Assembly (NCBI RefSeq): GCF_037392515.1
Contig: NC_090285.1
Location: forward strand, 70,717,515-70,781,514
Reading direction: 5' to 3'
Length of the DNA stretch: 64,000 bases
Source of the DNA: Haliotis asinina
Taxonomy: Eukaryota
Shown piece by piece: positions 16,496 to 34,707 of this stretch. How positions within the stretch are numbered: the stretch's first letter is position 1; every line of letters begins with the position of its first letter. A program made the position numbers and the translations under genes. The notes under the pieces were generated by a model. The model made no database searches and had not been told where the DNA came from. It worked only from the letters and a program-made list of their open reading frames with translations.

Positions 16496-16589
16496 TATAG
16501 CAAGAAACGTAGTCAAATCACCACAGAAATGGTTTGAGGTGCTAATGATGTGTGATAAAGTGCAAGAAAAGTAAATAGGTTGGATGCCA

Positions 16590-17385
16590 GTGTATTTTGG
16601 GAGAAGCTAGTAGGAGGTTGTGTACTGGTGTGTTTTGGGAGAAGCTAGTAGGAGGTTGTGTACTGATGTGTTTTGGGAGGAGCTAGTAGGAGGTTGTCTA
16701 CTGATGTGTTTTGGGAGAAGCTAGTAGGAGGTTGTTAACTGGTGTGTTTTGGGAGAAGCTAGTAGGAGGTTGTGTACTGGTGTGTTTTGGGAGAAGCTAG
16801 TAGGAGGTTATATACTGATGTGTTTTGGGAGAAGCTAGTACGAGGTTGTCTACTGATGTGTTTTGGGAGAAGTGAGAAAGAGGTTGTCTACTGCTCTGTT
16901 TTGGGAGATATTAGTACGAGGTTATCTTGTGGTATGTTTTGGGAGAAGTGAGTAGGAGGTTGTCTACTGGTGTGTTTTGAGAGAAGTTAGTATGAGGTTT
17001 TCTACTGATGTGCTTTAGGAGAAGTGAGTACGAGGTTGTCTACTGGTGTGTTTTGGGAGAAGGTAGTAGGAGGTTGTCTACTGATGTGCATTAGAAGAAG
17101 TGAGTAGGAGGTTGTCTACTGATGTGTTTTTAGAGATGTTAGTACGAGGTTATCTACAGATGTGTTTTGGGAGAAGTGAGTAGGAGGTTGTTAACTGGTG
17201 TGTTTTGGGAGAAGCTAGTAGGAGGTTGTCTAATGATGTGTTTTCGGAGATGTGAGTAGGAAGTTGTCTACTGACGTGGTTAGGGAGAAGTTAATAGGAG
17301 ATTGTCTAGTGGGGTGTTTTGGGAGAAGTGACTAGGAGGTTGTCTGCTGATGTGGTTTGGGGGAAGTATTTAGTCCTATTTTTAC
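16590..17385. repeat. Minisatellite, 38-bp unit with about 21 copies (intron 6)
   Basis: gtgttttgggagaagctagtaggaggttgtgtactgat and variants repeat. Confidence 0.85.
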
Positions 17386-17393
17386 TGTTGCAG

Positions 17394-17561
17394 CTGGAGA
17401 AGGCAGAGGCCATCTTGATGCAGATCCAGGACCGTTTAATGGCCAGCAAGACAGACCAGCTCAACTCTTTGAGGAATGACTTCTACGAAGCCCTCCCACA
17501 CAGACATCCAGATGAGGATGTCAGCAAACAGTGGGTGGCAACTAAGCTTGATCTGTGTCAG
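17394..17561 (+). CDS. PARP4: PARP4 exon 7
   Basis: Acceptor ttgcag|CTG directly follows the minisatellite. LEKAEAILMQIQDRLMASKTDQLNSLRNDFYEALPHRHPDEDVSKQWVATKLDLCQ resembles vertebrate SKAEGILLLVKAA...FYRLIPHKG...LLAKKADLCQ. Donor CAG|gtgggt. Confidence 0.75.
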
Positions 17562-17794
17562 GTGGGTTGGTTCTCTTACATTTAATATACTTGTGTTAAT
17601 GCCTGTGTTTGAAATAAGGTCCCTCTGACTGTCCAGCCGAGACAGGCTAGATTTCTGATGGACGGCCTAAATTTACAGCTAACCAGTCAGATGGTCTGGT
17701 AAGGAATTTAGATATTCCATACATCTGAGTGATTTCTCAGTATCTTGGTGACTGATCTGGTCTGGTTTAATCTATTTTGGGTTGGAGTACAACA

Positions 17795-18545
17795 CTCAGT
17801 GGTCATTGTGTGGGAGTACAACACTGAGACCTTGTGTGAGAGTTAGTGGTCATTGTGTGGGAGTACAACACTAAGTGGTCATTGTGTGGAAGTACAACAC
17901 TTAGTGGTCATTGTGTGGAAGTACAACACTTAGTGGTCATTGTGTGGGAGTACAACACTCAGTGATCATTGTGTGAGAGTACAACACTGAGTGATCATTG
18001 TGTGAGAGTACAACACTTAGTGATCATTGTGAGGGAGTACAACACTCAGTGGTCATTGTGTAGAAGTACAACACTGAATGATCATTGTGTGGGAGTACAA
18101 CACAGTGATGATTGTGTGGGAGTACAACACTGAGTGATCACTGTGTAGGATTACAACACTCAGTGATGATTGTGTGGGAGTACAACACTTAGTGGTCATT
18201 GTGTGGGAGTACAACACTGAGAAATTGTGTGGGAGTACAACACTCAGTGATCATTGAGTGGGAGTACAGCACTGAGTGATCATTTTGTAGGAGTACAACA
18301 CTGTGTGATCATTGTGTAGGAGTACAACACTGAGTAATCATTGTTTGGGAGTACAACACTCAGTGATTATTGTTTGGGAGTACAACACTCAGTGATCATT
18401 GTGTTGGAGTACAACACTGAATGATCATTGTGTGGGAGTACAACACTGAGTGATCTTTGTTTAGGAGTACAACACTGAGACATTGTTGGGGGGGTACAAC
18501 ACTCAGTGATCATTGTGTAGGAGTAAAACACTTAGTGGTCATTGT
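17795..18545. repeat. Minisatellite, 29-bp unit with about 26 copies (intron 7)
   Basis: gtgggagtacaacactgagtgatcattgt and variants repeat. Confidence 0.85.
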
Positions 18546-18580
18546 ATGGGAGTGCTCACAGTAATGATGGACTTTTCCAG

Positions 18581-18741
18581 TTGATCCGGGATATGATCTC
18601 TGTGAGCGAGGCCACTAACTGGTCCACTAGAAGTAGCACCGAGGCCAAGTACCGAGCCCTGCGATGCAGTATCGACTATCTTGAGTCACATGACCCACAA
18701 CACAAGTTGGTGAGAGACCTTGTTGAATCGTCCATTGAAGG
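18581..18741 (+). CDS. PARP4: PARP4 exon 8 (regulatory/helical region just before the catalytic domain)
   Basis: Acceptor ttccag|TTG. LIRDMISVSEATNWSTRSSTEAKYRALRCSIDYLESHDPQHKLVRDLVESSIEG resembles vertebrate LIRDMVNVCE...LAKYRALRCKIEHVEQ. Donor G|gtaagc, phase 2. Confidence 0.8.
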
Positions 18742-18764
18742 GTAAGCCTCACAAGTCTTTATTG

Positions 18765-19005
18765 CATCATATGTCTGTAGGTTATCACAGAAACATTTCA
18801 TGTCTTGTGTCTGTAGGTTATCACAGAAACATTTCATGTCTTGTGTCCGTAGGTTATCACAGAAACATTTCATGTCTTGTGTCTGTAGGCTATCACAGAA
18901 ACATTTCATGTCTTGTGTCTGTAGGTTATCACAGAAGGATTTCATGTCTTGTGCCTGTAGGTTATCACAGAAGGATTTCATGTCTTGTGCCTGTAGGTTT
19001 TCTTG
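18765..19005. repeat. Minisatellite, 36-bp unit with about 6.5 copies, starting about 20 bp after the exon 8 donor
   Basis: gtctgtaggttatcacagaaacatttcatgtcttgt repeats. It generates the 98/116-aa ORFs at 18720-19026. Confidence 0.85.
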
Positions 19006-19148
19006 ATGTGAATTAGCAGCAAGCATTGGTAGAAAGGCGATAGGTCTAATAGTGACATCTCTCGTGATTTGGTTATTCCTTTAATCAGATTTTTGAAGTC
19101 CATGTTTTGTCAGATGTTCTCTTGAACATAATGTCCTTGTTTTGTCAG

Positions 19149-19286
19149 AGATATAAAACTGGAGATCAAGGCTGTGTACGAGGTGCAGCGACCTATTGAG
19201 GAAACCAACTTTCGTCATGACATGGATCACAAACGACTCCTGTTCCATGCATCCAGGCCAGAAAACTTTGTTGGAATATTGTCACG
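19149..19286 (+). CDS. PARP4: PARP4 exon 9 (PARP catalytic domain; H of the H-Y-E triad)
   Basis: Acceptor ttgtcag|A. (G)DIKLEIKAVYEVQRPIEETNFRHDMDHKRLLFHASRPENFVGILSR has the PARP signature LLxH(G/A)S..N..GIL. Donor CG|gttggt, phase 2. Confidence 0.8.
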
Positions 19287-19386
19287 GTTGGTTTCTTTGG
19301 TAATAACTGAAATTACTGAAGCTGTTGTTATTACAGTGATGTTTATCTGGTGACTTGTTCATCTGTCTGTGTGTTCTTGATTTCAG

Positions 19387-19485
19387 TGGGCTGTTGTTGC
19401 CGAAAGTTGTAGTGGAGAACTATGGGGGTCAGAGGTCAGATGCAGGGATGCTGGGAAGTGGACTCTACTTTGCCAGTGCTGCAAG
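19387..19485 (+). CDS. PARP4: PARP4 exon 10 (catalytic domain, donor-loop / Tyr region)
   Basis: Acceptor tttcag|T. (R)GLLLPKVVVENYGGQRSDAGMLGSGLYFASAAR resembles vertebrate GLLLPKVVEDRGVQRTDVGNLGSGIYFS. Donor AG|gtcagt. Confidence 0.8.
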
Positions 19486-20415
19486 GTCAGTTGGTGGGAA
19501 TTGTTGATTACTGGGTGAAAAAGATGCTGCTGTGTAGTTAGCTCAACTGACGCAAGTGCCCTAAGGCAATGTTATTATGTTGTATCACCTAGTGAAATGT
19601 GCCCATGGTGTTATATAGTGATATCGCCTACAGTCCCTCACCTTGTCAGAATGTATCGTTTTGTGTCCAGTTGGAGATCTGTATTGGAGCGGGTCACAAT
19701 GGTGTGAGGAACATCACAAGCAATCAGGTCTTTGAATAGCAGGGAGGGAGAGAACATATATATGTTCCTGTAATAACAACAGAAGCGATAAGACAACAAA
19801 GATATATTCTACACAGTGGAACAAATGGACACCAGCACTAGACAGTGCATTAGCGGTGAATGGAAGCCAACAATTAACTGTTAATTAATGTTGATAGGTG
19901 ATGAACCACAGTAGAGCCTGGACAAAGTGCTGATGGAAGAAAGCATGTAATAGCAGTAATAAATGCAAGAGAGATTTACAAACTGAGGCCTAAACAAACA
20001 AGTTGAAACCATAATAAAATAATTAGCTCCAACGTTGATAAAACAATAAGTACAGACAAGATTGAAATGATCAAAGCGATGAGTTGGAGGTACTGGGCAG
20101 ATGTGTTGGTTCCCTGGTCACGTGGCTGGCCAATGTGAATGGCTTCTGCAGTTTTCTCTGTCACCAGTCACTTTGTGACTTCCCCCATGATGTGATGATC
20201 TTGTGTAGCTAGTCGCGAAACAGTCAGAGTCATACAAGCTTTTTAAGCCCATTTTTAACACATTGGCTATGATCAAAGTTAGGAATACTTAGTGCTGCAA
20301 ATGTTTTGAGAATAGGGACCCAGGTTGTTGAGGATGTGTTCAGAGATAACAGATTTGAGGTATAGTTAACATGTTAAGGACATTGTGTCTATCTGACCTG
20401 ACCGTGTTGTTGTAG

Positions 20416-20599
20416 CACCAGTGCCCAGTATTCCCGTGAGAGCAAGACGAAGGGCACAAGGCTGATGCTGGTGGCTGATGTTGCTCTAGGCCATTGTAAG
20501 GATCTGTATAACCATGACAGGACCCTCAAAGGCCCCCCAGAGGGGTATCACAGTGTACATGGTGTCAAGGACTCACCCAGCACCCCATCAGAATTCATG
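20416..20599 (+). CDS. PARP4: PARP4 exon 11 (catalytic domain)
   Basis: Acceptor ttgtag|C. STSAQYSRESKTKGTRLMLVADVALGHCKDLYNHDRTLKGPPEGYHSVHGVKDSPSTPSEFM resembles vertebrate ...TDGTRLLLICDVALGKC..L...D.SLTEAPPGYDSVHGV. Donor ATG|gtaggg. Confidence 0.8.
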
Positions 20600-20782
20600 G
20601 TAGGGATTATGTCTCATGATGTTTGACTTACAGGCTCATGTTTGAGTATGTTTGACTGTGCAAAGCTAATGTATGATGATGTTTTGACTGCCAGGTTAAT
20701 GTTTGACAATGTTTGACTTTTAGGCTGATGTTTGATAATGATTTGACTACCAGGTTGATGTTTGAATATGTTTGACTTACAG
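20600..20782. repeat. Intron 11. The entire 183-bp intron is about 6 tandem copies of a 30-bp unit, each containing a pseudo-3' splice site.
   Basis: Units of the form tgtttgacttacaggctcatgtttgagta and variants. Every unit carries ttgact(t/g/a)acag or ccag. The last unit provides the real acceptor ttacag|GCTGATGAG. Confidence 0.8.
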
Positions 20783-20939
20783 GCTGATGAGTATGCTGTG
20801 TACAGCATAAACCAGCAGCGTCTGAGATACCTAGTGGAGTTCAGCCTGGAGGGGGACCAAGTTCGGGATGTAAGTCTGGCAGACTGCCAGCAAGACATGG
20901 AGCAGACAGCTTTGGCTGACATGTTGCAGGACAACTTAG
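20783..20939 (+). CDS. PARP4: PARP4 exon 12 (catalytic Glu of the H-Y-E triad)
   Basis: ADEYAVYSINQQRLRYLVEFSLEGDQVRDVSLADCQQDMEQTALADMLQDNLG resembles vertebrate DDEFVVYKTNQVKMKYIIKFS..GDQIKD and the PARP1-type NEYIVY catalytic-Glu motif. Donor G|gtatgt, phase 1. Confidence 0.8.
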
Positions 20940-21066
20940 GTATGTCTGTAGTGTTCACATTTCAGATGTGGCAAACACCAGTGAACATACACAAGTCTCT
21001 TTGTCTGCCACTATATACCTTCACTTTCTGTCCAGTCCTGTTCACTCCTGTCTTTGTCAAACCCAG

Positions 21067-21318
21067 GAAGGCCTGGGTTAGAATATTGGCCTTCAGTAAC
21101 CCATGCTTGTCGCAAGAGGTGACTTATAGGATTGGGTGGTAAGGCTTGCAGACTGGGTTGACACGTTTTTTCAGTTCTCAGTTGTGCAGATTGATGCTTA
21201 TGCTGTTGAGCACAGGATTGTCTGGTCCGGATTCGATTATTTACAGACGGCCGCTGTATAGATGAAATATTGCTGAGTGTGGCATAAAACTAAACTCACT
21301 CACTCAGTCACTCAGCTC
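21067..21318 (+). mobile_element. SINE copy of family A (head of about 100 bp, conserved body, shared tail) in intron 12
   Basis: Head gaaggcctgggttagaatattggccttcagtaacccatgcttg... Body ttgtgcagattgatgcttatgctgttgagcacaggattgtctggtccggattcgattatttacagac. Tail aatattgctgagtgtggcataaaactaaactcactcactc. Homologous to copies at 45690-45898 and 61000-61262. Confidence 0.65.
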
Positions 21319-21407
21319 TTCATGCCATTCATCATTATTGTGCAATATTCACTATTTTCACTGTATTAAGTGAGTTCACTATGTTCCTCCACCTCCCACT
21401 ACTACAG

Positions 21408-21541
21408 ACTTATCTGATGTGCTGGGCATTGAGGATCCTCTGTCTAAGGTGGAGGCTGGTCTGGTTTCGGAGAGCAACAAGATGGCTGTGGAGCTGCAAG
21501 GAGTTCACATCCGTTCCAAACTGGTGGACCTGGCTGCTCAG
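21408..21541 (+). CDS. PARP4: PARP4 exon 13
   Basis: Acceptor ctacag|AC. (D)LSDVLGIEDPLSKVEAGLVSESNKMAVELQGVHIRSKLVDLAAQ resembles vertebrate ..LEDVHIKGRIIDTVAQ. Donor CAG|gtggga. This frame is absent from the ORF track because it is shorter than 60 aa. Confidence 0.7.
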
Positions 21542-23825
21542 GTGGGATTCACTGATTATTCACAATGAGTCAGAAGTCACTTAACCCTTGTGGATGCCAC
21601 AACATATATATCCTTCTTCTTCAACCGTCACTTTGAAGTCCTACAAAATTATTATATATCATGCACATAAATATACTATAGAGTTTTGAATTCTTCGCGA
21701 AATTCCCTGTTTTTTTTTATACCATCCACTGTTATCTCAGGCGAGGTTAAAGTGCTTCAAGTAACCTCTCAAAATTGGCTTCATCGTAAATGTCGCCTTT
21801 ATACACACAATACAAAATTGCGATTCACAGCATTATAACAACACTTATCATTCATCCCATATTCAGGGTGATTACTACAGTATGCTTGATTTCTTTATCC
21901 TGGTTTGGTATGCATACGAGTTCAAGTGTCCAATTATTTCCTACTTATGTAGCATCTACTGTAGAGTTTGCAAATAGTGTATGGAAGGAGGACCAGAAAG
22001 CATAGAATTTTGTTGGATTTACGTTAGAAAATGCCGTACATTTGGTAGCTTTATAGTAAATAAGTATTCCTTTGAAACCCTGTAAAAGTTGGTTTTATAT
22101 TGTTTTGGCTTGTATTATGTAGCATATATTTCACTATTAAAACACCAAATGAAGCGGATTGTTGTTTTTGCCTTGAAACCAAAGATAATGTTTTCGTGCA
22201 TCAAGGTTATGTTTCCTTCAGACAATACATCAAGCCAGGCGGATACTTTCTTCCATACTTTCGCTGTATGTCAGAATTCACACAGTAAATGTGTGATTGT
22301 TTCAGGGGCTTATTCACTGTTTACAAAATTATGTTTCATGAAGGCCGGTATTGAGATGCCAATTACATCATGTATATTTCATGTTCAACTGCAACAAATG
22401 CATCATTGAATTCCCAATACATCTTAAAGTCAAATGAGAACTGGTCCTTGTCAACAATACCAATTGTCTAAGTAAAACGAAATCAAATATATTGAGTGTG
22501 AAAACGAATGCTGTGCTTGAAATGTATACAAAGAACAATTCTGATTTTACACTACATAGCATTTCCGGAAATTTTCCGACATCCACCCATCTAATCATTG
22601 TTTACAATACATTTAGAAGATGCAGGGGAAGAGTATCGTAGCAAGAAATAGCAAATTAGAAATAGATACAATGCAATGATTTCATAATACATAAGAAACT
22701 GTCAAAGTTTCCATGCAGTGTGATACCATGACTGATGCAAAATCATGTTGAACAACCGTGGTACTTATTAACATTTCTAGCTTCTTCTGTTATTTACAAT
22801 GTAAATGATAAAAACATTTAATAAAACCCACATAGTAAGAATCATTGTGATTACATACATCACACTTTCATGTAGAAACGATCCCATAATTGAGGGAACA
22901 GTCCTCTCAAAATCCTGTGTATCCTTGTCAGCAAAGCTGCCATTTTGTAAGAAATAGGTCATTGGTAGTGTTGTCACACGTCAACATTGTTGCACATATT
23001 AGGCAATTTCTTTGAAGGTCGGTTAAACATCAATTGCCTTATCATTCTGATTACAATTTCAGTATTATGATGTATATTTACGTATTGTTCAGATATTTTT
23101 TAATGAAACTAATTTCAGTGGATATAGAGGGTATGCATTATTATACTTTGAAAGTTTTTTATTGTTTGAATAATATTTACATAGGAAATTGACACATTTA
23201 TTGCAGTATGCCACATTTTAAGCCTTTGCACAAGTGTTACAAACCACACGTAGCCATTACTGCAACATACTTTGGTTCCTATGGTGTACAATATTCAATA
23301 TGTTGGGACTAATATTGCAGTTTCATATGAACAGGTTGATAAACAATGATTTAATTCAACCTTAGAAAATATCAATGAAAAAAGCCACACATATTTGTTG
23401 GAATTGTCTTGTTCATTGAATTTATTTGTATTGTTTTAAAGACAAAACAATTATGAATACTGATTGACCAGATATGAGTTTTTCAACATTTTACTATTCA
23501 TCATCAGTGTTTTCGAACATACAATCAATTTAAATTTGATTAAAACATATTATGATGGCAAAGTATCTAATTCAAAGAATATTTATATCAAAATTGTTGA
23601 AGAATATAAACCAGGTCATGTTTTAATTTTGACAAACCTTACGTCCCTATTCTAATACAGTGGATGTCCTTAAAACTGGCATACCTCCAGTTTGGTCCTG
23701 GGAGAAGCTAGTTAATTATGTTTGTGACCAGTGAACAGCTTATATTGTATCTGCTGTCATTGTGTCTTTTCTCATACTTGTAAATAAATATTACTGCTTG
23801 TCATATATCTAGACAGAGCAAAGTG

Positions 23826-24489
23826 TTGTTGGACTGTTGTAGGCCTTACTAACCGTACTCCCAGTTGCAGTAAGATGTTTGTAGATGACTGACTTAGACT
23901 GATGTACTATGCAACACTACTGTTGGACTGTTGTAGGCCTTACTAACCGTACTCCCAGTTGCAGTAAGATGTTTGTAGATGACTGACTTAGACTGATGTA
24001 CTATGCAACACTACTGTTGGACTGTTGTAGGCCTTACTAACCGCACTCCCAGTTGCAGTAAGATGTTTGTAGATGACTGACTTAGACTGATGTACTATGC
24101 AACACTACTGTTGGACTGTTGTAGGCCTTACTAACCGCACTCCCAGTTGCAGTAAGATGTTTGTAGATGACTGACTTAGACTGATGTACTATGCAACACT
24201 ACTGTTGGACTGTTGTAGGCCTTACTAACCGCACTCCCAGTTGCAGTAAGATGTTTGTAGATGACTGACTTAGACTGATGTACTATGCAACACTACTGTT
24301 GGACTGTTGTAGGCCTTACTAACCGCACTCCCAGTTGCAGTAAGATGTTTGTAGATGACTGACTTAGACTGATGTACTATGCAACACTACTGTTGGACTG
24401 TTGTAGGCCTTACTAACCGCACGCCCAGTTGCAGTAAGATGTTTGTAGATGACTGACTTAGACTGATGTACTATGCATCACTACTGCAG
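23826..24489. repeat. Minisatellite, 94-bp unit with about 7 copies. The last copy is mutated into the acceptor of exon 14.
   Basis: gttggactgttgtaggccttactaaccg.actcccagttgcagtaagatgtttgtagatgactgacttagactgatgtactatgcaacactact repeats. The final unit reads ...tatgcatcactactgcag|GTGATAG. Confidence 0.85.
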
Positions 24490-24714
24490 GTGATAGTTCT
24501 CCAGGAGTACTACAACAACAGTGACACTGCTGTGGAGGCCAAGTATGTGTTTCCTCTAGATGACATGGCGGCTGTGTGTGGCTTTGAAGCGTTCATCAAT
24601 GACAAGCACATTGTAGGCGAGGTCAAAGAGAAGGAGCAAGCTCACAAGGAATACAGGAAGGCTGTCAGTGAGGGTCATGGAGCTTATCTGATGGACAGAG
24701 ATGAAGAGACACCG
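24490..24714 (+). CDS. PARP4: PARP4 exon 14 (VIT domain, N-terminal part)
   Basis: VIVLQEYYNNSDTAVEAKYVFPLDDMAAVCGFEAFINDKHIVGEVKEKEQAHKEYRKAVSEGHGAYLMDRDEETP resembles vertebrate VIVFQTYTNKSHVPIEAKYIFPLDDKAAVCGFEAFINGKHIVGEIKEKEEAQQEY.EAVTQGHGAYLM. Donor CCG|gtaagt. Confidence 0.85.
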
Positions 24715-25200
24715 GTAAGTATGGGTGAAGGTCAGCAGTGAGGGTCATGGAGCTTATCTGATGGACTGAGATGAAGAGACACCGGTAAGTATGGGTGAAG
24801 GTCAGCAGTGAGGGTCATGGAGCTTATCTGATGGACTGAGATGAAGAGACACCGGTAAGTATGGGTGAAGGTCAGCAGTGAGGGTCATGGAGCTTATCTG
24901 ATGGACTGAGATGAAGAGACACCGGTAAGTATGGGTGAAGGTCAGCAGTGAAGGTTATGTTGCTTATCTGATGGACACAGATGAAGAGACACTGATAAGT
25001 TTGGGTGAAGATCAATACTGAAGTTCGTGGAGGTGATCTGATGGACAGAGATGAAGAGACCAGTAGGTTTGGGAGAAGGTCAGTAGTGAGGGTCGTGGAG
25101 GTGATCTGATGGACAGAGATGAAGAAAGAAAGGTAAGTTCAGTCACCAGTGAAGGTTTTGGGGTGTGTCATAATGGAAGGTCATTTAGCCTTTCTGATGG
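24645..25200. repeat. 70-bp tandem array of about 6 copies that duplicates the last 45 nt of exon 14 plus its GT donor
   Basis: The unit ...agtgagggtcatggagcttatctgatggac(a/t)gagatgaagagacaccg|gtaagtatgggtgaaggtcagc repeats at 24715, 24785, 24855 and 24925, then degenerate copies. Copies 2-4 carry TGA (ggacTgag) and the read-through frame hits CAG CAG TGA. Confidence 0.85.
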
Positions 25201-25339
25201 ACAGACATGTTAAGGTGGCAGTAAGTTAGAGGTGAAGATGTGACAGGGATGTTGTGTGGGAAGGTGATTACTGAAAGGTAGCAAGCCATATTGGTTTTGC
25301 TATAAATACTAAAACCAGTTTCTGTGTTTAATGTTTCAG

Positions 25340-25504
25340 GATGTTTTTACAGTGAGTGTTGGCAACCTCCCACCCCATGCATCTGTCCTCATCAAGATTA
25401 CTTATGTAGCTGAGCTACAGGTCGAAGCAGAACTTATAAGTTTCCGGTTACCAGGCAGTGTGGCACCATGGAAACAAGACTCCGCTGCTGCTGAAATCAC
25501 TCAG
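25340..25504 (+). CDS. PARP4: PARP4 exon 15 (VIT domain)
   Basis: Acceptor tttcag|GAT. DVFTVSVGNLPPHASVLIKITYVAELQVEAELISFRLPGSVAPWKQDSAAAEITQ resembles vertebrate DVFTVSVGNLPPKAKVLIKITYITEL...ATVAPWQQD. Donor CAG|gtacgc. Confidence 0.85.
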
Positions 25505-25711
25505 GTACGCATTCTGACACTAAGACTGTGTGCTTATGAAATAATTGCAACTGTGAAAGTATGGAATTTTCATTGTTTGAATTTTCTCACGATGATGAAA
25601 TATGATGATATGTTTTGTTTTGTTTTATATAGATGTTCTTATGCATATTATTTAGAAACACTTCTTGTGTTGCTGGTTTGAAGATTTTTCAGTTGTTGCT
25701 AATGGTTACAG

Positions 25712-25825
25712 ACTGAGGTAGAAACACACAAGGTTCAGTCAGGAGACACTACTGTGCAGGTTGCTGTGGAGATGCCTTTTGACATTCGCTCAATACAGTG
25801 TCCCTCACACAAAATCAGAATGAAG
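25712..25825 (+). CDS. PARP4: PARP4 exon 16
   Basis: Acceptor ttacag|ACT. TEVETHKVQSGDTTVQVAVEMPFDIRSIQCPSHKIRMK resembles vertebrate ..SFSLTMSIEMPYVIEFI.SDTHELKQK. Donor AAG|gtgaga. Confidence 0.7.
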
Positions 25826-26509
25826 GTGAGAAACACTCAAGCATTTTCAGATTTTTATTGATTTCAGAGGTGGTTTTAAAATTCATAGAAAGACTGCAGT
25901 CTAATCTATGTTTCATTCTCAATAAACATTTGCCTGGGGACTGTTAAACCTGTTCATTATGTATGACAAGTGAAAAATAAAATTTACTTACCATGTAGTT
26001 CTGTTTTTAGCCCACCTTTTTCAATAATATCAATTATTTCTGTTGCCATTGGGGGAAGTTTGAATTTCTCATGGTAAAAGATTGAAATGCCCAGTAATCG
26101 AAACAGGCAGATATTTGAATCTCATGAATATATACTGGACAAAAATAGTTAAGGATATATATAAATTTTGAAATTATGAATAATTATCTATTTATTCCTT
26201 GACACACTGATGAAATATCAGTCATAAAAGTACCAATATCCCTAATTTATTTTGTCCAGCATGTATGGTGATCTGAAGTTATGTGGTTCAACATAAAGCT
26301 GTCCTTAGTGTAGTGATACTGGATCAATAGGATCTGAGAGTTGTGTATCGGTCATCTGCCTATTTGTCTGTAGAGTAATGAAAGATGAAAGTTTTGTCTG
26401 GCACTATCATGAACTTTGCTCATCAGAATGGACAAGATTGATGATAAATGAAAAGTGTGATATGTTTTAAGAATTTAGTGACAGAGTCCACCTGGAAACA
26501 CTAGTATCA

Positions 26510-27483
26510 CATAGTCCTGTCATGTAGTGCTGTCATGTAGTTGTGTCTTGTAGTGCTGTCAGGTGTCTACTCATGTAACTGTTGGTCTACAGTGTCTACT
26601 CATGTAGCTGTTGGTCTACAGTGTCTACTCATGTAACTGTTGGTTTATAGTTTCTACTCATGTAACTGTTGGTTTATAGTTTCTACTCATGTAACTGTTG
26701 GTTTATAGTTTCTACTCGTGTAACTGTTGGTTTATAGTTTCTACTCATGTAGCTCTTGGTCTGTAGTGTCTACTCATGTAACTGTTGGTTTATAGTTTCT
26801 ACTCATGTAGCTGTTGGTTTATAGTTTCTACTCATGTAACTATTGGTTTATAGTTTCTACTCATGTAACTGTTGGTTTATAGTTTCTACTCATGTAACTG
26901 TTGGTTTATAGTTTCTACTCATGTAACTGTTGGTTTATAGTTTCTACTCGTGTAGCTGTTGGTTTATAGTTTCTACTCATGTAACTGTTTGTCTGTAGTG
27001 TCTACTCATGTAACTGTTGGTTTATAGTTTCTACTCATGTAACTGTTGGTCTACAGTGTCTACTCATGTAACTGTTGGTTTATAGTTTCTACTCATGTAA
27101 CTGTTGGTTTATAGTTTCTACTCGTGTAACTGTTGGTTTATAGTTTCTACTCGTGTAACTGTTGGTTTATAGTTTCTACTCGTGTAGCTCTTGGTCTGTA
27201 GTGTCTACTCATGTAATTGTTGGTTTATAGTTTCTACTCATGTAACTGTTGGTCTGTAGGGTCTACTCATGTAACTGTTGGTCTGTAGTGTCTACTTATG
27301 TAACTGTTGGTCTGTAGTGTCTACTCGTGTAGCTGTTGGTCTGTAGTGTCTACTCGTGTATCTGTTGGTCTGTAGTGTCTACTCATGTAGCTGTTGGTCT
27401 GTAGTGTCTACTCATGTAGCTGTTGGTCTGTAGTGTCAACTCATGTAGCTGTTGGTCTGTAGTGTCTACTCATGTTCCTCCAG
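26510..27483. repeat. Minisatellite, 29-bp unit with about 32 copies. Its final unit forms the acceptor of exon 17.
   Basis: Units of the form (g/t)tctactcatgtaactgttggtttatagt and gtctactcatgtagctgttggtctgtagt. The last unit is mutated to gtctactcatgttcctccag|AGAACTG. Confidence 0.85.
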
Positions 27484-27621
27484 AGAACTGCTGCTAAGGC
27501 GGTTGTGGAGATGTGTGATGGACAGTCAATACAAGATGGCTTCCACCTCCTGATTGGGCTGGCTGAGATACACGTGCCTCGGATGTGGGTTGAGAGACAT
27601 CCGGACAAGGACATGCATCAG
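27484..27621 (+). CDS. PARP4: PARP4 exon 17
   Basis: RTAAKAVVEMCDGQSIQDGFHLLIGLAEIHVPRMWVERHPDKDMHQ resembles vertebrate ..CKAVISTMEGSSLD.SGFSLHIGLSAAYLPRMWVEKHPEKE. Donor CAG|gtaggc, phase 0. Confidence 0.8.
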
Positions 27622-28110
27622 GTAGGCTGGCAGGGGAATGATTGTATGGTTTGTGGATGGAGAGACATGCATCAGGTAGGCTGGCAGGGGAATGATTGTA
27701 TGGTTTGTGGATGGAGAGACATGCATCAGGTAGGCTGGCAGGGGAATGATTGTATGGTTTGTGGATGGAGAGACATGCATCAGGTAGGCTGGCAGGGGAA
27801 TGATTGTATGGTTTGTGGATGGAGAGACATGCATCAGGTAGGCTGGCAGGGGAATGATTTTATGGTTTGTGGATGGAGAGACATGCATCAGGTAGGCTGG
27901 CAGGGGAATGATTGTATGGTTTGTGGATGGAGAGACATGCATCAGGTAGGCTGGCAGGGGAATGATTGTATGGTTTGTGGATGGAGAGACATGCATCAGG
28001 TAGGCTGGCAGGGGAATGATTTTATGGTTTGTGGATGGAGAGACATGCATCAGGTAGGCTGGCAGGGGAATGATTGTATGGTTTGTGGATGGAGAGACAT
28101 GCATGAACCA
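27604..28110. repeat. 54-bp tandem array of about 9.5 copies that reiterates the exon 17 3' end plus its GT donor, in frame
   Basis: The unit acatgcatcag|gtaggctggcaggggaatgattgtatggtttgtggatggagag repeats. Each copy carries CAG|gtaggc at codon phase 0. The exon frame stays open through all copies (the 252-aa ORF at 27472-28230, encoding VGWQGNDCMVCGWRDMHQ per unit). Confidence 0.85.
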
Positions 28111-28235
28111 GGGGATCAAAGCTGCATGTTGTATGTGTATTTTAATTGTTGTTGTTTTAGTAATATCATGTTGTGTCAGGTTCATGTTGAATATTCTCTC
28201 CCTATTTTTTCTTTGATCTTCATTCTGTAATCTAG

Positions 28236-28422
28236 GCCTGCATGTTGACATTTTACCCTGAGTTTGAAGCGGATGAGGATGATGATGTGGAGATTGTGTT
28301 CCTCCTTGACCTCTCCAACTCCATGTCAGGTGATGCAGTGCTGGATGCCAAGAAGCTGTTGATGATGTTGCTGCACAACTTGCCACCACGCTCCACCTTC
28401 AACGTCCTCTGCTTCGGAACAG
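28236..28422 (+). CDS. PARP4: PARP4 exon 18 (start of the vWA domain, with a MIDAS-like DxSxS motif)
   Basis: Acceptor atctag|GCC. ACMLTFYPEFEADEDDDVEIVFLLDLSNSMSGDAVLDAKKLLMMLLHNLPPRSTFNVLCFGTG resembles vertebrate EACMLVFQPDLD...VIICLDCSSSMEGVTFLQAKQIALHAL.....VNIIQFGTG. Donor G|gtcagt, phase 1. Confidence 0.8.
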
Positions 28423-28573
28423 GTCAGTTTCATCCACGCAATGTGTTGCTAAGGGTGCGATTTGATGATCAATTGATGAAAAGATGTGGACAGATAGATC
28501 ATTATTAATGATATTGGGAGCACTGGGAGTAATGTTTGAGTAACCATGGACATGGTATTGGTGATGTTGTCAG

Positions 28574-28647
28574 GTCACCGGGAGCTGTTCCCAACCAGCC
28601 AGCCCAACACAAACACCAACATCCATTCTGTGGAGACATTCCTCAAG
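28574..28647 (+). CDS. PARP4: PARP4 exon 19 (vWA domain)
   Basis: Acceptor gtcag|GT. (G)HRELFPTSQPNTNTNIHSVETFLK resembles vertebrate YKELFSYPKHITSNTMAAEFIM. Donor AAG|gtgggt. Confidence 0.65.
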
Positions 28648-28649
28648 GT

Positions 28650-29507
28650 GGGTGGAATCTTGTTGCCAAACAACCATGACACTTTTTGGATAATTTCAAC
28701 GGGATTCCAGTCAGTTAACTTCTGCTTTTGTCTGTATCAGTACAGTAATTGTAAACTCTGTTGTCAGGGGAGTCCAGTCAGTTAACTTCTACTTTTGTCT
28801 GTATCAATACAGTAATTGTAAACTGTGTTGTCAGGGGAGTCCAGTCAGTTAACTTCTACTTTTGTCTGTATCAATACAGTAATTGTAAACTGTGTTGTCA
28901 GGGGAGTCCAGTCAGTTAACTTCTACTTTTGTCTGTATCAATACAGTAATTGTAAACTGTGTTGTCAGGGGAGTCCAGTCAGTTAACTTCTACTTTTGTC
29001 TGTATCAATACAGTAATTGTAAACTGTGTTGTCAGGGGAGTCCAGTCAGTTAACTTCTACTTTTGTCTGTATCAATACAGTAATTGTAAACTGTGTTGTC
29101 AGGGGAGTCCAGTCTGTTAACTTCTACTTTTGTCTGTATCAATACAGTAATTGTAAACTGTGTTGTCAGGGGAGTCCAGTCAGTTAACTTCTACTTTTGT
29201 CTGTATCAATACAGTAATTGTAAACTCTGTTGTCAGGGGAGTCCAGTCAGTTAACTTCTACTTTTGTCTGTATCAATACAGTAATTGTAAACTGTGTTGT
29301 CAGGGGAGTCCAGTCTGTTAACTTCTACTTTTGTCTGTATCAATACAGTAATTGTAAACTGTGTTGTCAGGGGAGTCCAGTCTGTTAACTTCTACTTTTG
29401 TCTGTATCAATACAGTAATTGTAAACTGTGTTGTCAGGGGAGTCCAGTCAGTTAACTTCTACTTTTGTCTGTATCAATACAGTAATTGTAAACTGTGTTG
29501 TCAGGTG
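28650..29507. repeat. Minisatellite, 68-bp unit with about 12.5 copies, beginning within a few bp of the exon 19 donor
   Basis: ggggagtccagtcagttaacttctacttttgtctgtatcaatacagtaattgtaaactgtgttgtcag repeats. Each unit ends in an acceptor-like tgttgtcag. Confidence 0.85.
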
Positions 29508-30067
29508 GTTATTTATGGAATGGGACTTTGTTAGTTTCATGAAAATAAGATCTTGCCTTTTCATTGTCTTCCCATAATGCACATGCTCTATGGCAGTGGC
29601 ATGCAAATTCATATATTTTCATCAGTTTAGTAGCCTGGAAAGGTGTTACGGTAAGTGTGTCTGTGTAGTATCTTAGATGTACTCCACACCTATGACCAGA
29701 AGTGTTAATTTTCATTGTGTAGATGTCAGAAATTTAAATATCCTCTTGTACTTCAATGCTACTTAGCAGTATTTGATTTGACTAGCAATATTTTATGTTT
29801 GGCCATCAGGACACGAACTGTTCACTTCCTGTTCATAGTTTGACCTGTCATCATGACATTATGACATGCAGCATTGAATGTAGAAATGCATGGGCAGGTG
29901 ACTTAAGGATCTAGTTGTACTATTGAGATTGACTGGAATGGGGGATCAGATGATATTTTTGGATGCGGTAACTGAGGTGAAGCTTTTAGGTTGAATAATG
30001 GTAATGTTATGGTTAGTCATCATTTTACTGGGGTAGGAATTAGTTGGTGGCTGATCTTGTCGTGCAG

Positions 30068-30255
30068 ACGGCGTGGGCAGACATGGGCAACACAGAGGTG
30101 TTTAAACCCCTCCACTCTTACCACCTGCTAGCCTCCACCACAGCAACACGGAACATCTTCATCATCAGCGATGGACACATCAACAATGAGGACAGTGTTC
30201 TCAATGCCGTCCTCAACAACACTAATCATACTCGAGTCTTCACATTTGGTGTCAG
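30068..30255 (+). CDS. PARP4: PARP4 exon 20 (vWA domain)
   Basis: Acceptor cgtgcag|ACG. TAWADMGNTEVFKPLHSYHLLASTTATRNIFIISDGHINNEDSVLNAVLNNTNHTRVFTFGV resembles vertebrate TPTMGNTDFWKTLRYLSLLYPARGSRNILLVSDGHLQDESLTLQLVKRSRPHTRLFACGI. Donor AG|gtatga, phase 2. Confidence 0.75.
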
Positions 30256-30665
30256 GTATGAGATGAGTTGACTTGTGTCGCTTTATCAGTAACAAGGAGG
30301 TAAACCATAGGATACTGGTTCATGGATGTAGGCTGTTGCATAGACCTCTCAGTGTTTAGTCTTCTTATCATCGCTTGGCTTGTGGTTTGGTTTTTCTCTT
30401 GAGCTTCAAGAGATTATTACCTCCCAGGGTCATTTCAGTTAGGTTTACTCAAACAAATGAGGAGACATATTTAAAATTAGTTGTACTTAAACTGCTGTCA
30501 AAAGTGAGGCTCAGTCACTTCCAGCAGCAAAACATGGATGGAATTGATGTTGAGCTTATTAGTACTACCACACAACATGATACTGTTTTAGTTAGAGTAC
30601 ATGTATGATAGTGTACTGTCAGTCTTGTCTGATCCCATGTACTGATTTCTTGTGTATTTCTCTAG

Positions 30666-30765
30666 TTCCACTGCCAACATGCACCTCCTGCGAGCCATTG
30701 CCAGAGTTGGAGGGGGAGCATTTGAGTTCTTTGACAGGAAAGCCAAATCTAAGTGGGAGAGGAAG
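30666..30765 (+). CDS. PARP4: PARP4 exon 21 (vWA domain)
   Basis: Acceptor tctag|T. (S)STANMHLLRAIARVGGGAFEFFDRKAKSKWERK resembles vertebrate GSTANRHVLRILSQCGAGVFEYFNAKSKHSWRKQ. Donor AAG|gtaagc. Confidence 0.75.
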
Positions 30766-30904
30766 GTAAGCTGTGGTAGCATCACTCAACCCTGTGTGGA
30801 GTGTTCATCCACTTCTAGTTATCCCCTGCAATGCGTTTAAAATGTTTAGCATGGGGTTTAGAATGGACTCCACCCATCAGTGCATTTGACAGTGCATGCA
30901 TGCA

Positions 30905-31093
30905 TCTGTGCTCATTTGTCTAAATCTCACCACTCTGGCACTTATCTCACCACTCTGGTGTATCTTATCTCACCACAATAGGATGGCATATCTCACCACT
31001 CTGGTGTGTCTTATCTCACCACTTATCTCACCACTTATCTCACCACTCTGGTGTGTCGTTTCTCACCACTTATCTCAAGCCTTCCATCAACAG
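30905..31093. repeat. Short-unit tandem repeat (about 24 bp; tatctcaccactctggtgtgtct variants) running up to the exon 22 acceptor
   Basis: About 7 degenerate copies ending ...tctcaagccttccatcaacag|GTGAAG. Confidence 0.7.
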
Positions 31094-31264
31094 GTGAAGT
31101 CTCAGCTGAGTAAGGCCTCCCAGCCAGGTCTGACCTCTGTGGCAGTTGAGTGGCAACAATTTGACAGTGATGCAGCAACATTGCCACAAGCTCCACGGCA
31201 GATCACAGCTCTATTCAACGGCTCACGGCAAGTTGTGTATGGACTGGTACCTAACTGCACCATG
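31094..31264 (+). CDS. PARP4: PARP4 exon 22
   Basis: VKSQLSKASQPGLTSVAVEWQQFDSDAATLPQAPRQITALFNGSRQVVYGLVPNCTM resembles vertebrate IEDQMTRLCSPSCHSVSVKWQQLNPDVPEALQAPAQVPSLFLNDRLLVYGFIPHCTQ. Donor ATG|gtgggt. Confidence 0.75.
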
Positions 31265-31360
31265 GTGGGTATATATGTGTAGTAAATGTGTTAATGTTTT
31301 ATGATGATGATGAAGATGATGACGACAATAATGATGATATTTGCGACTGTTTCAATGTAG

Positions 31361-31441
31361 GCAACCTTGAAGGCTGTTGTCGGGGGACAGGAAGTGTCAA
31401 CAGTAGTCTCAACGTCTGAACTTAGCATCACAACAGGATTG
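31361..31441 (+). CDS. PARP4: PARP4 exon 23
   Basis: Acceptor aatgtag|GCA. ATLKAVVGGQEVSTVVSTSELSITTGL resembles vertebrate ATLCALIQEKEFRTMVSTTELQKTTG. Donor TTG|gtaaga. Confidence 0.65.
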
Positions 31442-31824
31442 GTAAGAGATTTTAATTTTGTTTATGTTTAAGGCGGAGAAGCAGAGTGTGGTGTTCAGGT
31501 TGCTGTAACAGAATCACCAATGGACATGTCTTCATTGTCCATGCATTTAATGACAATAAAATATTGATGCAATTACATTGATATCTTCTCATTATACATA
31601 ATCAGTTTTCATATTCCTATTTCATGTGTAACATTTAGATCAGGCCTACTGGCCTACAATCAAATGCTTTTCCTGTTTGTCCCATTGGTAGTCTCATACA
31701 GAATCATTATGCATCTATTTGTTGTAATCCCCACAATGTATCACAGATAAATCTTTAAATAAGAACAAATTTTGAAAAACAACTTCACCTGGTATCCACT
31801 GATCGCTGTATGTCTTGATTATAG

Positions 31825-31905
31825 ATCGTTCACCGACTGACAGCACGGGCACTTATACGAGACTGGGAGGATGGTATGCTGTCTGCAGATCGCACACAAC
31901 ATGAG
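31825..31905 (+). CDS. PARP4: PARP4 exon 24
   Basis: Acceptor attatag|ATC. IVHRLTARALIRDWEDGMLSADRTQHE resembles vertebrate MIHKLAARALIRDYEDGILHENETSHE. Donor GAG|gtcagt. Confidence 0.75.
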
Positions 31906-32281
31906 GTCAGTCCCATGATGCACTGTCACTTTTTTTCTTGAAACTGAAGAAATTAATTAATCTTTGTTTCTGAACCCATCTCTGCAACTTCAAATCTGTA
32001 TAAACGTAGAGAAGTTAAATTTTTCCAACAGATGTGTGGCTCTTGAGGAGGGAACTATATAATGCTGTTGAAATTATTTGGGGAAAATTTAAGGACAGTT
32101 ATCTCCTTAAAAAGTGTTTCTTTAAAAAATGAAGTCAATACATTTAAAAGGTTCTGCTTTTTGTTCCCTTGAAATATGTAGTAAACCCTTGTTGATGACG
32201 TTAGAGAATACTGTTGACAAATCTTGACCCTGAAGATACATGTGTTTATGATTCTTACCAACAAGTACCTGTATGTTGTAG

Positions 32282-32383
32282 ATGTTGAAACTGAATCTGA
32301 AGAACTATGTGATTGACTTGAGCAAGGAGTATTCCATTGTCACTCAGTTCACCAGCTTTGTTGCCATAGAAACCAGAGATGAG
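32282..32383 (+). CDS. PARP4: PARP4 exon 25
   Basis: Acceptor ttgtag|ATG. MLKLNLKNYVIDLSKEYSIVTQFTSFVAIETRDE resembles vertebrate MKKQTLKSLIIKLSKENSLITQFTSFVAVEKRDE. Donor GAG|gtaagt. Confidence 0.8.
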
Positions 32384-32639
32384 GTAAGTGTTTCCTTATG
32401 TCCTGCGAATTGGAGTTATCAAATACGTTAGGAAGACGTGTATTGCCTTTAGGTGGGGAGTACTCCCACTGCTGCACATGTGCTCTCTAGGACCTGCCCA
32501 GATTAGATATTTTAGGGTTTAAAGAGCACCATTCCAAAACGTGTCTACTGCTGTAACTAGATGTTCTCACCTGAAATGTTCCAGCGATGAATAAGACATA
32601 TGTATTTGAGGAATATGGTGTAACTACTTTAGAGTATGT

Positions 32640-34260
32640 GGCCCTGACGTTGACAGGTTGTGGAGTCGATGTTGACAGGTTGTGGAGTGTGTGTTGACAG
32701 TTTGTGGAATGGATGTTAGCATCTGGTGACCTTGATATTGACATGTTGTCTCCACAACATATCAGCATTCTACATGTCAACATCCACTCCACAACATGTC
32801 AACATCCACCCAACGACATATCATCATCCTCTCCACAACATGTCAACATCCACCCAACGACATATCATCATCCTCTCCACAACATGTCAACATCCACCCA
32901 ACGACATATCAGCATCCTCTCCACAACATGTCAACATCCACCCAACGACATATCATTATCCTCTCCACAACATGTCAACATCCACCCAACAACATATCAG
33001 CATCCTCTCCACAATGTGTCAACATCCCCCCAACGACATATCAGCATCCTCTCCACAACATGTCAACATCCACCCAACGACATATCATCATCCTCTCCAC
33101 AACATGTCAACATCCACCCAACAACATATCAGCATCCTCTCCACAATGTGTCAACATCCACCCAACAACATATCAGCATCCTACATGTCAACGTCAACTC
33201 CACAACATGTCAACATCCACCCGACAACATATCGGCATCCTACATGTCAACGTCAACTCCACAACATGTCAACATCCACCCAACAACATATCAGCATCCT
33301 CTCCACAATGTGTCAACATCCACCCAACAACATATCAGCATCCTGCATGTCAACGTCAACTCCACAACATGTCAACATCCACCCAACAACATATCGGCAT
33401 CCTACATGTCAACGTCAACTCCACAACATGTCAACATCCACCCAACAACATATCAGCATCCTCTCCACAATGTGTCAACATCCACCCAACAACATATCAG
33501 CATCCTACATGTCAACATCCACTCCACAACATGTCAAAACCCACTCCACAAAATGTCAACATCCACTCCATGACATGTGAACATCCACAACATGTCAAAA
33601 CCCACTCCACTACATGTCAGCATCCACTCCACAGCATATCAGCATCCACTCCACAGCATGTCAGCATCCTCTCTACAACATGTCAATATCCTCTCCACTA
33701 CATGTCAACATTCTCTCCACTACATGTCAACATCCTCTCCACTACATGTCAACATCCACTCCACTACATGTCAACATCCACTCCACTACATGTCAACATC
33801 CACTCCACAACATGTCAACATCCGCTCCACTGCATGTCAACATCCACTCCACTACATGTCAACATCCACTCCACAACATGTCAACATCCGCTCCACTACA
33901 TGTCAACATCCACTCCACTACATGTCAACATCCACTCCACTACATGTCAACATCCACTCCACTACATGTCAACATCCACTCCACAACACGTCAACAGCCT
34001 CTCCACTACATGTCAGCATCCACAGCACAACATGTCAACATCCACTCCACAGCATGTCAGCATCCACAGCACAACATGTCAACATCCACTCCACAGCATG
34101 TCAGCATCCTCTCTACAACATGTCAATATCCTCTCCACTACATGTCAACATCCACAGCACAACATGTCAACATCCTCTCCATTACACGTCAACAGCCTCT
34201 TAAGACGTTGTGGAGAGGATGTTGACATGTAGTGGAGTAGATGTTGACATGGTGTAACTG
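32640..34260. repeat. Intronic satellite array of about 1.6 kb. The base unit is 22 bp (ctccactacatgtcaacatcca), with 44/66-bp higher-order variants, and it is strongly strand-asymmetric (C/A-rich). Both ends carry 2-3 inverted copies of the unit.
   Basis: Main array in one orientation from about 32745 to 34200. Reverse-orientation units lie at 32645-32712 (gttgacaggttgtggag...) and 34205-34250 (gttgtggagaggatgttgacatgtagtggag...). The shared flank agagtatgtggc.c...gttgaca occurs at about 32621 and about 34262. The array generates ORFs up to 478 aa that are artefactual. Confidence 0.8.
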
Positions 34261-34452
34261 CTGCAGAGTATGTGGCTCCTCCGTTGACATTGATGTAGTT
34301 GTCCATCTCATACTCAGATTATTGGGTTTTTTTTAGCTCCTTCTATGAAAGGAGGTGTCAAACCAGTTAGTTACTGTTGGTATATATTAGTAGACTCTTT
34401 TGCTGAGCAAACAGTGAAGTTTTTAACTGAGTAATGTATGTATCCCGGCTAG

Positions 34453-34707
34453 GATGAGAAGAAAGGCCTGCGAGAGTCATGTGGCCCAAGCATACTTGAC
34501 TTAGTGAGTGGTCACAACATGGACATACTAGACTACATGGGCTGGGACGGAGACAAGGACGAGGAGAAGATGAGCACATCAATGTCTGAGATGGAGGATT
34601 TGATGCTGGAGCCAGAAGTGCAAGATTCATTGATGGAGCAGGACTCGATAACGTTGTACATGAAACAGACGAAGTTGAGGGATCTGGATCTGGATCAGTG
34701 TGAATCA
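34453..34707 (+). CDS. PARP4: PARP4 exon 26 (acidic linker after the vWA domain)
   Basis: Acceptor ccggctag|GAT. DEKKGLRESCGPSILDLVSGHNMDILDYMGWDGDKDEEKMSTSMSEMEDLMLEPEVQDSLMEQDSITLYMKQTKLRDLDLDQCES resembles vertebrate ..DVDFLPYMSWQGEPQEA... Donor TCA|gtaaga, phase 0. Confidence 0.6.

Follow-up and report, generated by a model that had tools for sequence, protein, structure and literature searches.

Minisatellites at and across the splice junctions of a PARP4-like gene in Haliotis asinina

The 64,000-nucleotide stretch of Haliotis asinina contig NC_090285.1 analysed here (positions 70,717,515 to 70,781,514; hereafter the window) holds a PARP4-like gene (11564..60778, + strand, as are all features below unless otherwise indicated) whose introns are crowded with minisatellites, many of them beginning or ending close to a splice site. 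An earlier note on this DNA had listed six acceptors at which such arrays stop, and had called the density of these contacts striking. Are the repeats directed to the junctions, kept there by selection, or placed there as chance would have it? We find that their proximity to junctions is, for the most part, no greater than expected if local duplications arose at random in short introns. The most plausible explanation, to which we assign a probability of roughly 0.7, is that minisatellites arose locally in short introns, some of them across a junction, and were then filtered by selection.

Arrays were called with Tandem Repeats Finder (TRF), which delimited 11 junction-proximal arrays with units of 23-94 bp and 5-31 copies. 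In the 27 introns analysed, an array lies within about 50 nt at 10-11 of the 54 junctions, an unusually dense occupation for a single gene. Between exons 6 and 26 the arrays make up 7192 of the 15969 intronic bases, showing that tandem repeats can reach 45% of intron DNA.

The splice sites were assigned by homology and reading frame. PARP4 homologues were found from one exon-derived peptide, exons were placed with these homologues by tblastn, and boundaries were fixed by reading the sequence. All introns between exons 1 and 26 (11564-34707) are GT-AG and the joined frame is open for 1278 aa, on which Pfam places BRCT (residues 2-79), PARP_reg (293-375), PARP (416-575), VIT (636-748) and VWA (884-1036). 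This is the domain order of PARP4 (vault PARP) and identifies the gene. The open frame, the homology across the junctions and the domain architecture confirm as GT-AG junctions the six acceptors of the earlier note, with AG ends at 17393, 20782, 24489, 27483, 31093 and 59706.

Arrays that span exon-intron junctions

Three arrays carry bases of the adjoining exon together with its splice dinucleotide in their unit: 49 nt plus GT in a 70-bp array at exon 14, 12 nt plus GT in a 54-bp array at exon 17, and AG plus at least 7 nt in intron 11. This is the defining anatomy of junction-spanning minisatellites of the "mirage" or F7 type. Units composed of exon bases and a splice-site copy are expected where the seeding duplication spanned the junction, and we propose that at least these three arrays were seeded in this way.

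The 70-bp array (24666..25125, 6.6 copies) takes in the final 49 nt of exon 14 and continues across the donor (24714|24715). The unit consists of the exon end plus CCG|gtaagt; three exact pseudo-donors and two decayed copies come after the authentic site, and use of any of the pseudo-donors is predicted from the reading frame to lead to a stop 9 codons on. The 54-bp array (27610..28104, 9.2 copies, 99% identical) starts 12 nt inside exon 17 and spans the donor 27621|27622; downstream of the authentic CAG|gtaggc it repeats the same donor sequence eight times, as pseudo-donors. Its unit is open and in phase with exon 17, and each extra unit would add the 18 residues VGWQGNDCMVCGWRDMHQ between VIT and vWA, use of the k-th pseudo-donor inserting k-1 copies. 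The earlier note had counted some donors among its contacts but had missed these two arrays, the clearest cases, which start within exons.

Intron 11 (20600-20782) had been described as built of repeats only. Its length of 183 bp stands and nearly all of it is repeat, but its donor (ATG|gtaggg) and first 19 nt lie outside the 29/59-bp array (20619..20789), which takes up the remainder and extends into the first 7 nt of exon 12. Each unit copies ttgacttacag|GCTGATG, and besides the authentic acceptor there are four AG-bearing pseudo-acceptors, any of which, if used, would be expected from the frame to give TGA at codon 4. The likeness previously seen between the exon 12 start and the unit is real: GCTGATGAGTATG compares with GCTGATG--TATG of the unit, at least 7 contiguous bases match, and 11 of the first 13 bases do so if a 2-nt gap is allowed.

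This likeness had been read as a sign that exon 12 begins in what was once repeat, but the direction of descent is the opposite one. The nearest PARP4 loci that we compared share 70-84% amino-acid identity with the window and belong to compact genes; they can date the positions of introns, not the arrays. One of them, L007, has an intron at the same codon and in the same phase as intron 11 (SQFE|gtacac...ttgcag|DDEF), which is 101 bp long and free of the repeat, and in L001, L002, L003 and L011 the match to exon 12 starts at or next to the same residue. Since relatives carry an intron at the same codon and phase, the exon 12 junction is older than the repeat. It follows that the repeat was copied from the boundary, and that intron 11 was not made by duplication. 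The alternative offered in the earlier note, that arrays nucleate from acceptor-proximal sequence, is thus supported for intron 11, and the 70-bp and 54-bp arrays, with units made of exon bases plus a splice dinucleotide, extend it to donors.

Arrays that stop at or near splice sites

For the remaining arrays, homology at the array edges was examined by in-register extension and by permissive alignment against shuffles. The 94-bp array (23827..24486, 7 copies, 99% identical) ends 3 nt before the exon 14 acceptor AG (24489). Its homology halts at the CAG itself, and all six upstream copies read ctgttg|G where the acceptor has ctgcag|G. Inside exon 14, positions 24507-24570 (GTACTACAACAACAGTGACACTGCTGTGGAGGCC ... 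TAGATGAC) show a weak likeness to the 94-bp unit, at the point where one copy ends and the next begins and in the TAGATGAC motif. The resemblance is marginal, with p = 0.008 at first and 0.013-0.025 when re-tested against other exons and shuffles, and may go back to an old duplication that took in part of the exon, or be due to chance. The 29-bp array before exon 17 (26566..27475, 31 copies), which is adjoined upstream by a 13-bp array (26512-26561), ends 8 nt before the acceptor AG (27483). These final 8 nt (TCCTCCAG) are unique, and the corresponding position lacks AG in all 31 upstream copies.

In intron 21, the 23/47-bp array (30924..31077) ends by TRF 16 nt before the exon 22 acceptor AG (31093), and beyond that end a degenerate copy, still in register, keeps up the similarity until about 2 nt before the AG. 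The 24-bp array (59572..59698, 5.3 copies), in a 364-bp intron, ends 8 nt before the AG at 59706; its unit had been given as 30 bp, which TRF corrects to 24 bp. The 38-bp array of intron 6 (16591..17367, 20 copies) ends 26 nt before the exon 7 acceptor AG (17393). Its unit matches the exon 7 start GGAGAAG, not significantly, and the last 26 nt before 17393 show no significant similarity to the repeat (p = 0.34). For the five acceptor-side arrays with units of 94, 29 (31 copies), 24, 23 and 38 bp, homology breaks off at the AG or up to 8 nt before it, similarity to the exon is non-significant or marginal, and on present alignments they are best described as abutting their junctions, not as demonstrably spanning them.

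The statement that arrays end precisely at the AG consequently holds for about four of the six acceptors and fails as a general rule, the TRF ends lying 26, 16, 8, 8 and 3 nt before the AG and, in one case, 7 nt into the exon. The changes quoted for the final units do read as written, with ctactgttgg against ctactgcag|G and catgtaactgttgg against catgttcctccag|A.

Three further arrays lie somewhat farther from a junction. The 29-bp array of intron 7 (17845..18553, 25 copies) stops 27 nt short of the acceptor of exon 8 (18580), with a similarity to flank and exon of p = 0.066. The 36-bp array of intron 8 (18772..18999, 6.3 copies) starts 30 nt after the exon 8 donor (18742), and alignment against shuffles detected no junction homology in it (p = 0.74). 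The 67-bp array of intron 19 (28701..29505, 12 copies) starts 53 nt downstream of the donor of exon 19. The unit ends in the 10-mer tgttgtcag|g, which it shares with the exon 19 acceptor, and was for this reason considered as a copy of exon 19 plus acceptor; this candidate was rejected at p = 0.12. Similarities between units and neighbouring exons are thus individually weak; Fisher combination of the nine p-values gives about 0.03 by our own calculation.

Authentic splice sites beside arrays are of ordinary strength, neither weaker nor stronger than others (p = 0.49), when scored leave-one-out with matrices that are small and trained on the PARP4 gene alone. An apparent weakness of array-adjacent sites, seen with a matrix trained on the other sites, disappeared under this scoring.

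The arrays are, judging from comparison with relatives, young and lineage-specific. None of them was found in the homologous introns of L001-L007 or L011, which are roughly 50-270 bp long, and exons 8-26 span 4.7 kb in L007 vs 16.1 kb in the window. Copies are 91-99% identical in five arrays, including those with the three largest units, and 70-85% identical in the rest. No unit matches anything outside its own array within the 64-kb window, and every unit is a different sequence. L011 has an array of its own beside an acceptor. In this locus, the PARP4 copy of another organism, 16 copies of a 19-bp unit (3065-3368; tttcag|aatcatg) lie about 30 nt upstream of the acceptor gtgtttcacag|agtc, which shows that the phenomenon is not confined to the window.

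The organism of L011 (WLWD contigs) apparently carries many PARP4 paralogues. In three of the other loci the intron before the exon 12 homologue holds a simple repeat, (CTCC)61 in L001 (9383-9629), (CCCT)58 in L002 (9177-9403) and (AC)219 in L003 (412-848), each ending 2-8 nt before the exon match. In L001 and L002, GAGG-rich tracts begin 3 nt after the exon 14 homologue.

Chance, mechanism and rival explanations

Proximity to junctions was tested for 13 arrays under two null models. When arrays were moved as blocks within the present-day introns, the contacts were far in excess of chance (Fisher p = 3e-5), with six arrays no more than 8 nt from a junction against 1.6 expected. In the second model each array was collapsed to one unit, which was dropped uniformly on the collapsed intron and was permitted to straddle a junction; for ten arrays the collapsed introns measured 41-838 bp, and for two others 1.3-2.4 kb. 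The overall Fisher p then rose to 0.29, about 3.4 arrays were expected to span or lie within 3 nt of a junction (four do so), and the six arrays at or within 8 nt compared with 3.8 expected (p = 0.10). The signal largely vanishes because the block model ignores that the arrays themselves lengthened the introns. Short ancestral introns are independently plausible, since those of the relatives measure roughly 50-270 bp. The striking density therefore holds against block placement in today's introns, but is mostly an effect of the null model. Genome scans of this kind should judge the proximity of repeats to splice sites relative to the intron before the repeat grew in it, not to the present-day intron.

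We believe that the following course of events is the most probable. Segments of 20-95 bp would have been duplicated in tandem, presumably via replication slippage or microhomology-mediated duplication, and slippage or unequal exchange would then have multiplied the units. The host introns would at first have measured only about 40-800 bp, with one exception of about 2.4 kb. In introns so short, a duplicated segment would often overlap or nearly touch a splice junction. Selection would subsequently act as a filter: the exon-proximal copy must remain the working splice site. Downstream donor copies may stay intact, and their mis-use would give a premature stop or an in-frame insert; upstream acceptor copies would be tolerated only if they lack AG, as in the 94-bp and 29-bp arrays, or run into a stop, as in intron 11. 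Within exons, survival would be limited to arrays whose unit is divisible by three. The copies do differ in this manner, pseudo-donors being perfect and the upstream acceptor copies of the 94-bp and 29-bp arrays lacking AG. In the scanning model of acceptor choice, the first AG after the branch point tends to be chosen, so that upstream acceptor copies would be harmful. On the donor side, the asymmetry fits the behaviour of human F7, where, among identical donors, splicing takes the one farthest upstream (PMC1557585). If the explanation is right, the gene offers a natural experiment in splice-site choice, with a donor followed by eight copies, a donor followed by three and an acceptor preceded by four AG-bearing copies, all in one transcript.

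Several observations weigh against this explanation. Under the second model, ten arrays lie at or within 30 nt of a junction against 5.1 expected (p = 0.0015, uncorrected and post hoc), which indicates that geometry alone is insufficient. Three arrays end 3-8 nt short of the AG where about 0.7 would be expected (own Poisson estimate, p ~0.03, post hoc), and the four acceptor-side arrays with 94-, 29-, 24- and 23-bp units stop 2-8 nt from the AG with no detectable exon-derived sequence. Moreover, ancestral intron lengths were assumed to equal the present length minus the array, the copy taken as spliced was assigned from reading frame and homology only, and the duplication mechanism is a proposal. 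The data come from one gene in one haplotype, which the earlier note had picked because it looked striking.

The residual excess could reflect a mutational process directed to junctions, which would seed tandem duplications preferentially at exon-intron boundaries and place their edges at splice sites beyond what geometry gives; slippage in pyrimidine tracts, breaks coupled to transcription or splicing, R-loops and chromatin boundaries of exons are candidates. Such a process would account for the excess within 30 nt and for the three arrays ending 3-8 nt short of the AG, all of them acceptor-side, as well as for the halt of the 94-bp homology at the CAG itself, and it would agree with the combined unit-exon similarities (p ~0.03), with the acceptor-derived array of L011 and with the large simple repeats that end at the acceptor of the pre-exon 12 intron in three other species. 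However, the excesses are post hoc, involve several thresholds and come from a gene selected for its pattern, and the overall p under the collapsed model is 0.29. Arrays also occur in mid-intron (16203, 32649 and 53439) and inside exons, so seeding is not confined to junctions, and pyrimidine or AC repeats at the acceptors of compact introns in relatives are expected from expanded polypyrimidine tracts. We regard a junction-directed process as unlikely. A bolder version is more doubtful still: that this lineage may seed tandem duplications at junctions, notably just upstream of the acceptor AG, through splice signals or co-transcriptional splicing, so that boundaries become hotspots driving the growth of introns and of banks of decoys, and that the 54-bp array could supply PARP4 isoforms of variable length.

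The arrays might instead be kept by selection for a role in splicing, as banks of decoys or enhancers, as branch points or pyrimidine tracts, or as alternative donors that yield isoforms. Arrays ending 3-8 nt from the AG must draw the branch point from their own last unit, several units hold acceptor- or donor-like motifs above background density, each of the eight pseudo-donors of the open 54-bp unit would add 18 residues between VIT and vWA, and in human genes the repeat pseudo-donors of IFI6 and CBS are used and the repeat length in ABCA7 alters splicing. But an open 18-codon frame has a chance of about 0.14 in any unit divisible by three (own estimate), and motif density in an array only multiplies the content of one unit. 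The absence of the arrays from all relatives compared argues against a conserved function, and the high identity of copies points to recent, ongoing turnover. Acceptor decoys mostly lack AG. The related suggestion of the earlier note, that splice-like units are preferentially retained, finds no support, for much the same reasons: the upstream copies of the 94-bp and 29-bp arrays have no AG, none of the arrays was found in the relatives compared (the closest at 84% amino-acid identity), all units differ, and site strength beside arrays is ordinary. We consider maintenance for a splicing role improbable. It is very improbable that the arrays came as satellites inside mobile elements that had inserted near splice sites, or are artefacts of assembly. 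Satellites borne by Helitrons or by miniature inverted-repeat transposable elements are found in bivalves, the window is rich in mobile DNA (a long terminal repeat (LTR) retrotransposon and several copies of a short interspersed element (SINE)), and an array at 45901 starts at a SINE tail. Against this, no unit recurs within the 64 kb and three arrays hold the gene's own exon sequence, which together make a transposon origin unlikely; the junction arrays have neither terminal repeats nor transposon ends at their flanks, and the scattered substitutions among copies and their consistent register are those of real arrays. Least credible of all is the creation of intron 11 by tandem duplication of an exonic proto-splice site of the AG|GT type, as in the Rogers model. 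Such an origin would explain an intron that is almost wholly repeat and an exon 12 start that resembles the unit, but it is contradicted by L007, which has an intron at this codon in the same phase, and by the start of the exon 12 match shared with L001, L002, L003 and L011. Moreover, the donor and first 19 nt of intron 11 do not come from the repeat, and the splice sites are not two copies of one segment.

Local generation in short introns, followed by selection, also agrees with systems already described. Junction-spanning minisatellites are known from lancelets and from human F7, IFI6, CBS and ABCA7, a link that the earlier note had not drawn, and PARP4 is a dense new example. In lancelets, the mirages of Branchiostoma (Adh3, troponin C, the globins BflGb6 and BflGb9, and PGBD5) are boundary-spanning minisatellites at 5' and 3' boundaries, with normal mRNA retained (PMC3087553, PMC3902484). 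The PARP4 arrays share with them repeats of tens of bp, units that span the boundary, the presence of both boundary types and of several arrays per gene, many units that keep AG or GT, boundary copies that escape homogenisation, and normal splicing, which for PARP4 is a prediction. They differ from the mirages in that 10-11 junctions of one gene are involved, that about half of the arrays abut the junction with no detectable exon-derived sequence, that they are known here from genomic sequence, and that the protein is mollusc-like (best identities molluscan, with Crassostrea gigas at 73-79% and Solemya at 69-75%, against about 50% for chordates). If our explanation is right, the mirage phenomenon of lancelets extends to a mollusc, probably a new phylum for such repeats. 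Full-text literature searches found no report of junction-spanning minisatellites in molluscs; in abalone, an ordinary intronic minisatellite of 27 bp is described in one paper.

In the human F7 gene, the first monomer of a 37-bp variable number tandem repeat (VNTR) in intron 7 spans the boundary, and the most upstream of the identical donors is used, as established experimentally; similar repeats are known in IFI6 (6-16), CBS intron 13, LMNB2 and PDGFA (PMC1557585). The 70-bp and 54-bp arrays have the same layout of an authentic donor followed by pseudo-donors (three and eight, respectively). They differ from F7 in holding 49 and 12 exon nt per unit, instead of 4, and in that use of the most upstream donor is here a prediction. 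The human cases of this type have one array per gene, on the donor side, in contrast to several arrays on both sides in PARP4. The 25-bp VNTR of human ABCA7 intron 18 starts right at the GT of the donor, and a frameshift results when one unit is retained (PMC5954066). It resembles the PARP4 arrays in that the array boundary coincides with the splice dinucleotide and in that retention through a cryptic donor leads to a premature stop, as predicted for the 70-bp array, and differs in being donor-side, the exact-boundary arrays of PARP4 being acceptor-side, and in that its length is tied to disease and isoform ratios. Finally, the Rogers model, in which an intron is gained when an exon segment containing AGGT is duplicated in tandem (cited in PMC3087553), and for which a case in potato RdRp is on record (PMC4974935), has in common with PARP4 that a tandem duplication involves splice-signal sequence and that the intron is largely repeat. 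Unlike in that model, intron 11 predates its repeat, and the PARP4 arrays lengthen existing introns, none being gained.

Gene model and other repeats of the window

Exons 1-6 lie at 11564-11692, 12783-12981, 13273-13415, 13893-14030, 14329-14493 and 15679-15816; exons 7-12 at 17394-17561, 18581-18741, 19149-19286, 19387-19485, 20416-20599 and 20783-20939; exons 13-18 at 21408-21541, 24490-24714, 25340-25504, 25712-25825, 27484-27621 and 28236-28422; exons 19-23 at 28574-28647, 30068-30255, 30666-30765, 31094-31264 and 31361-31441; and exons 24-26 at 31825-31905, 32282-32383 and 34453-34707. Later exons, with long open frames, are placed at 53912-54961, 57829-59342, 59707-59806 and 60346-60778. 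These C-terminal exons drew no support from Pfam, which did not detect the MVP-binding C-terminal domain, and tblastn similarity to relatives is weak; the junction at 59706 (QQ|DGSW) resembles QDGSW or QDGYW of the relatives. The final set was curated by homology and reading frame, and a home-made dynamic-programming gene finder served as a guide only; it called too many small exons and even strung together pseudo-exons within the 54-bp array. Between 34708 and 53911 the gene holds 19 kb rich in transposons, where the model is incomplete. Exon 26 ends in phase 0 and an acidic open frame at 45431-45620 needs phase 1, and so at least one exon is missing there.

Two mid-intron arrays served as controls away from junctions. 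The 33-bp array of intron 6 (16203..16490, 8.7 copies) is 386 nt from the nearest junction, and the 22-bp array complex of intron 25 (32649..34251, 66 copies) is more than 200 nt from both. The latter array (32772-34194) is bracketed by inverted copies of its own unit (32649-32717 and 34210-34251), and, within 32618-34297, also by a direct repeat of about 45 nt of flank, which suggests an origin more complex than simple slippage. Coding tandem repeats occur at 15707-15748, 45486-45543, 54611-54794 and 58675-58745 (for example PFSRKSAIE x2). The unit is divisible by three in 5 of 5 exonic loci (21, 27, 6/12/36 and 18/9 bp) vs 4 of 14 intronic ones.

About 4 kb upstream of the PARP4 start codon, on the - strand, 3638-7473 holds three long open reading frames (209, 351 and 766 aa) that look, by eye, like the gag-protease-reverse transcriptase-RNaseH-integrase of an LTR retrotransposon. 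A tRNA-like SINE with an (ACTC)n tail, described as lying in PARP4 introns, is present at ~21080-21320, ~45700-45900, ~59950-60125 and ~61080-61300; ARAGORN called no tRNA in these copies. A 22-bp array of 50 copies (45901-46997) begins directly at the (ACTC)n tail of one of them. A dispersed repeat family of about 160-220 bp, both tandem and scattered, occupies 55787-57325, in the intron that separates the two large C-terminal exons, and 63440-64000, past the end of the gene, and a (CGTC)21 microsatellite lies at 56555-56637.

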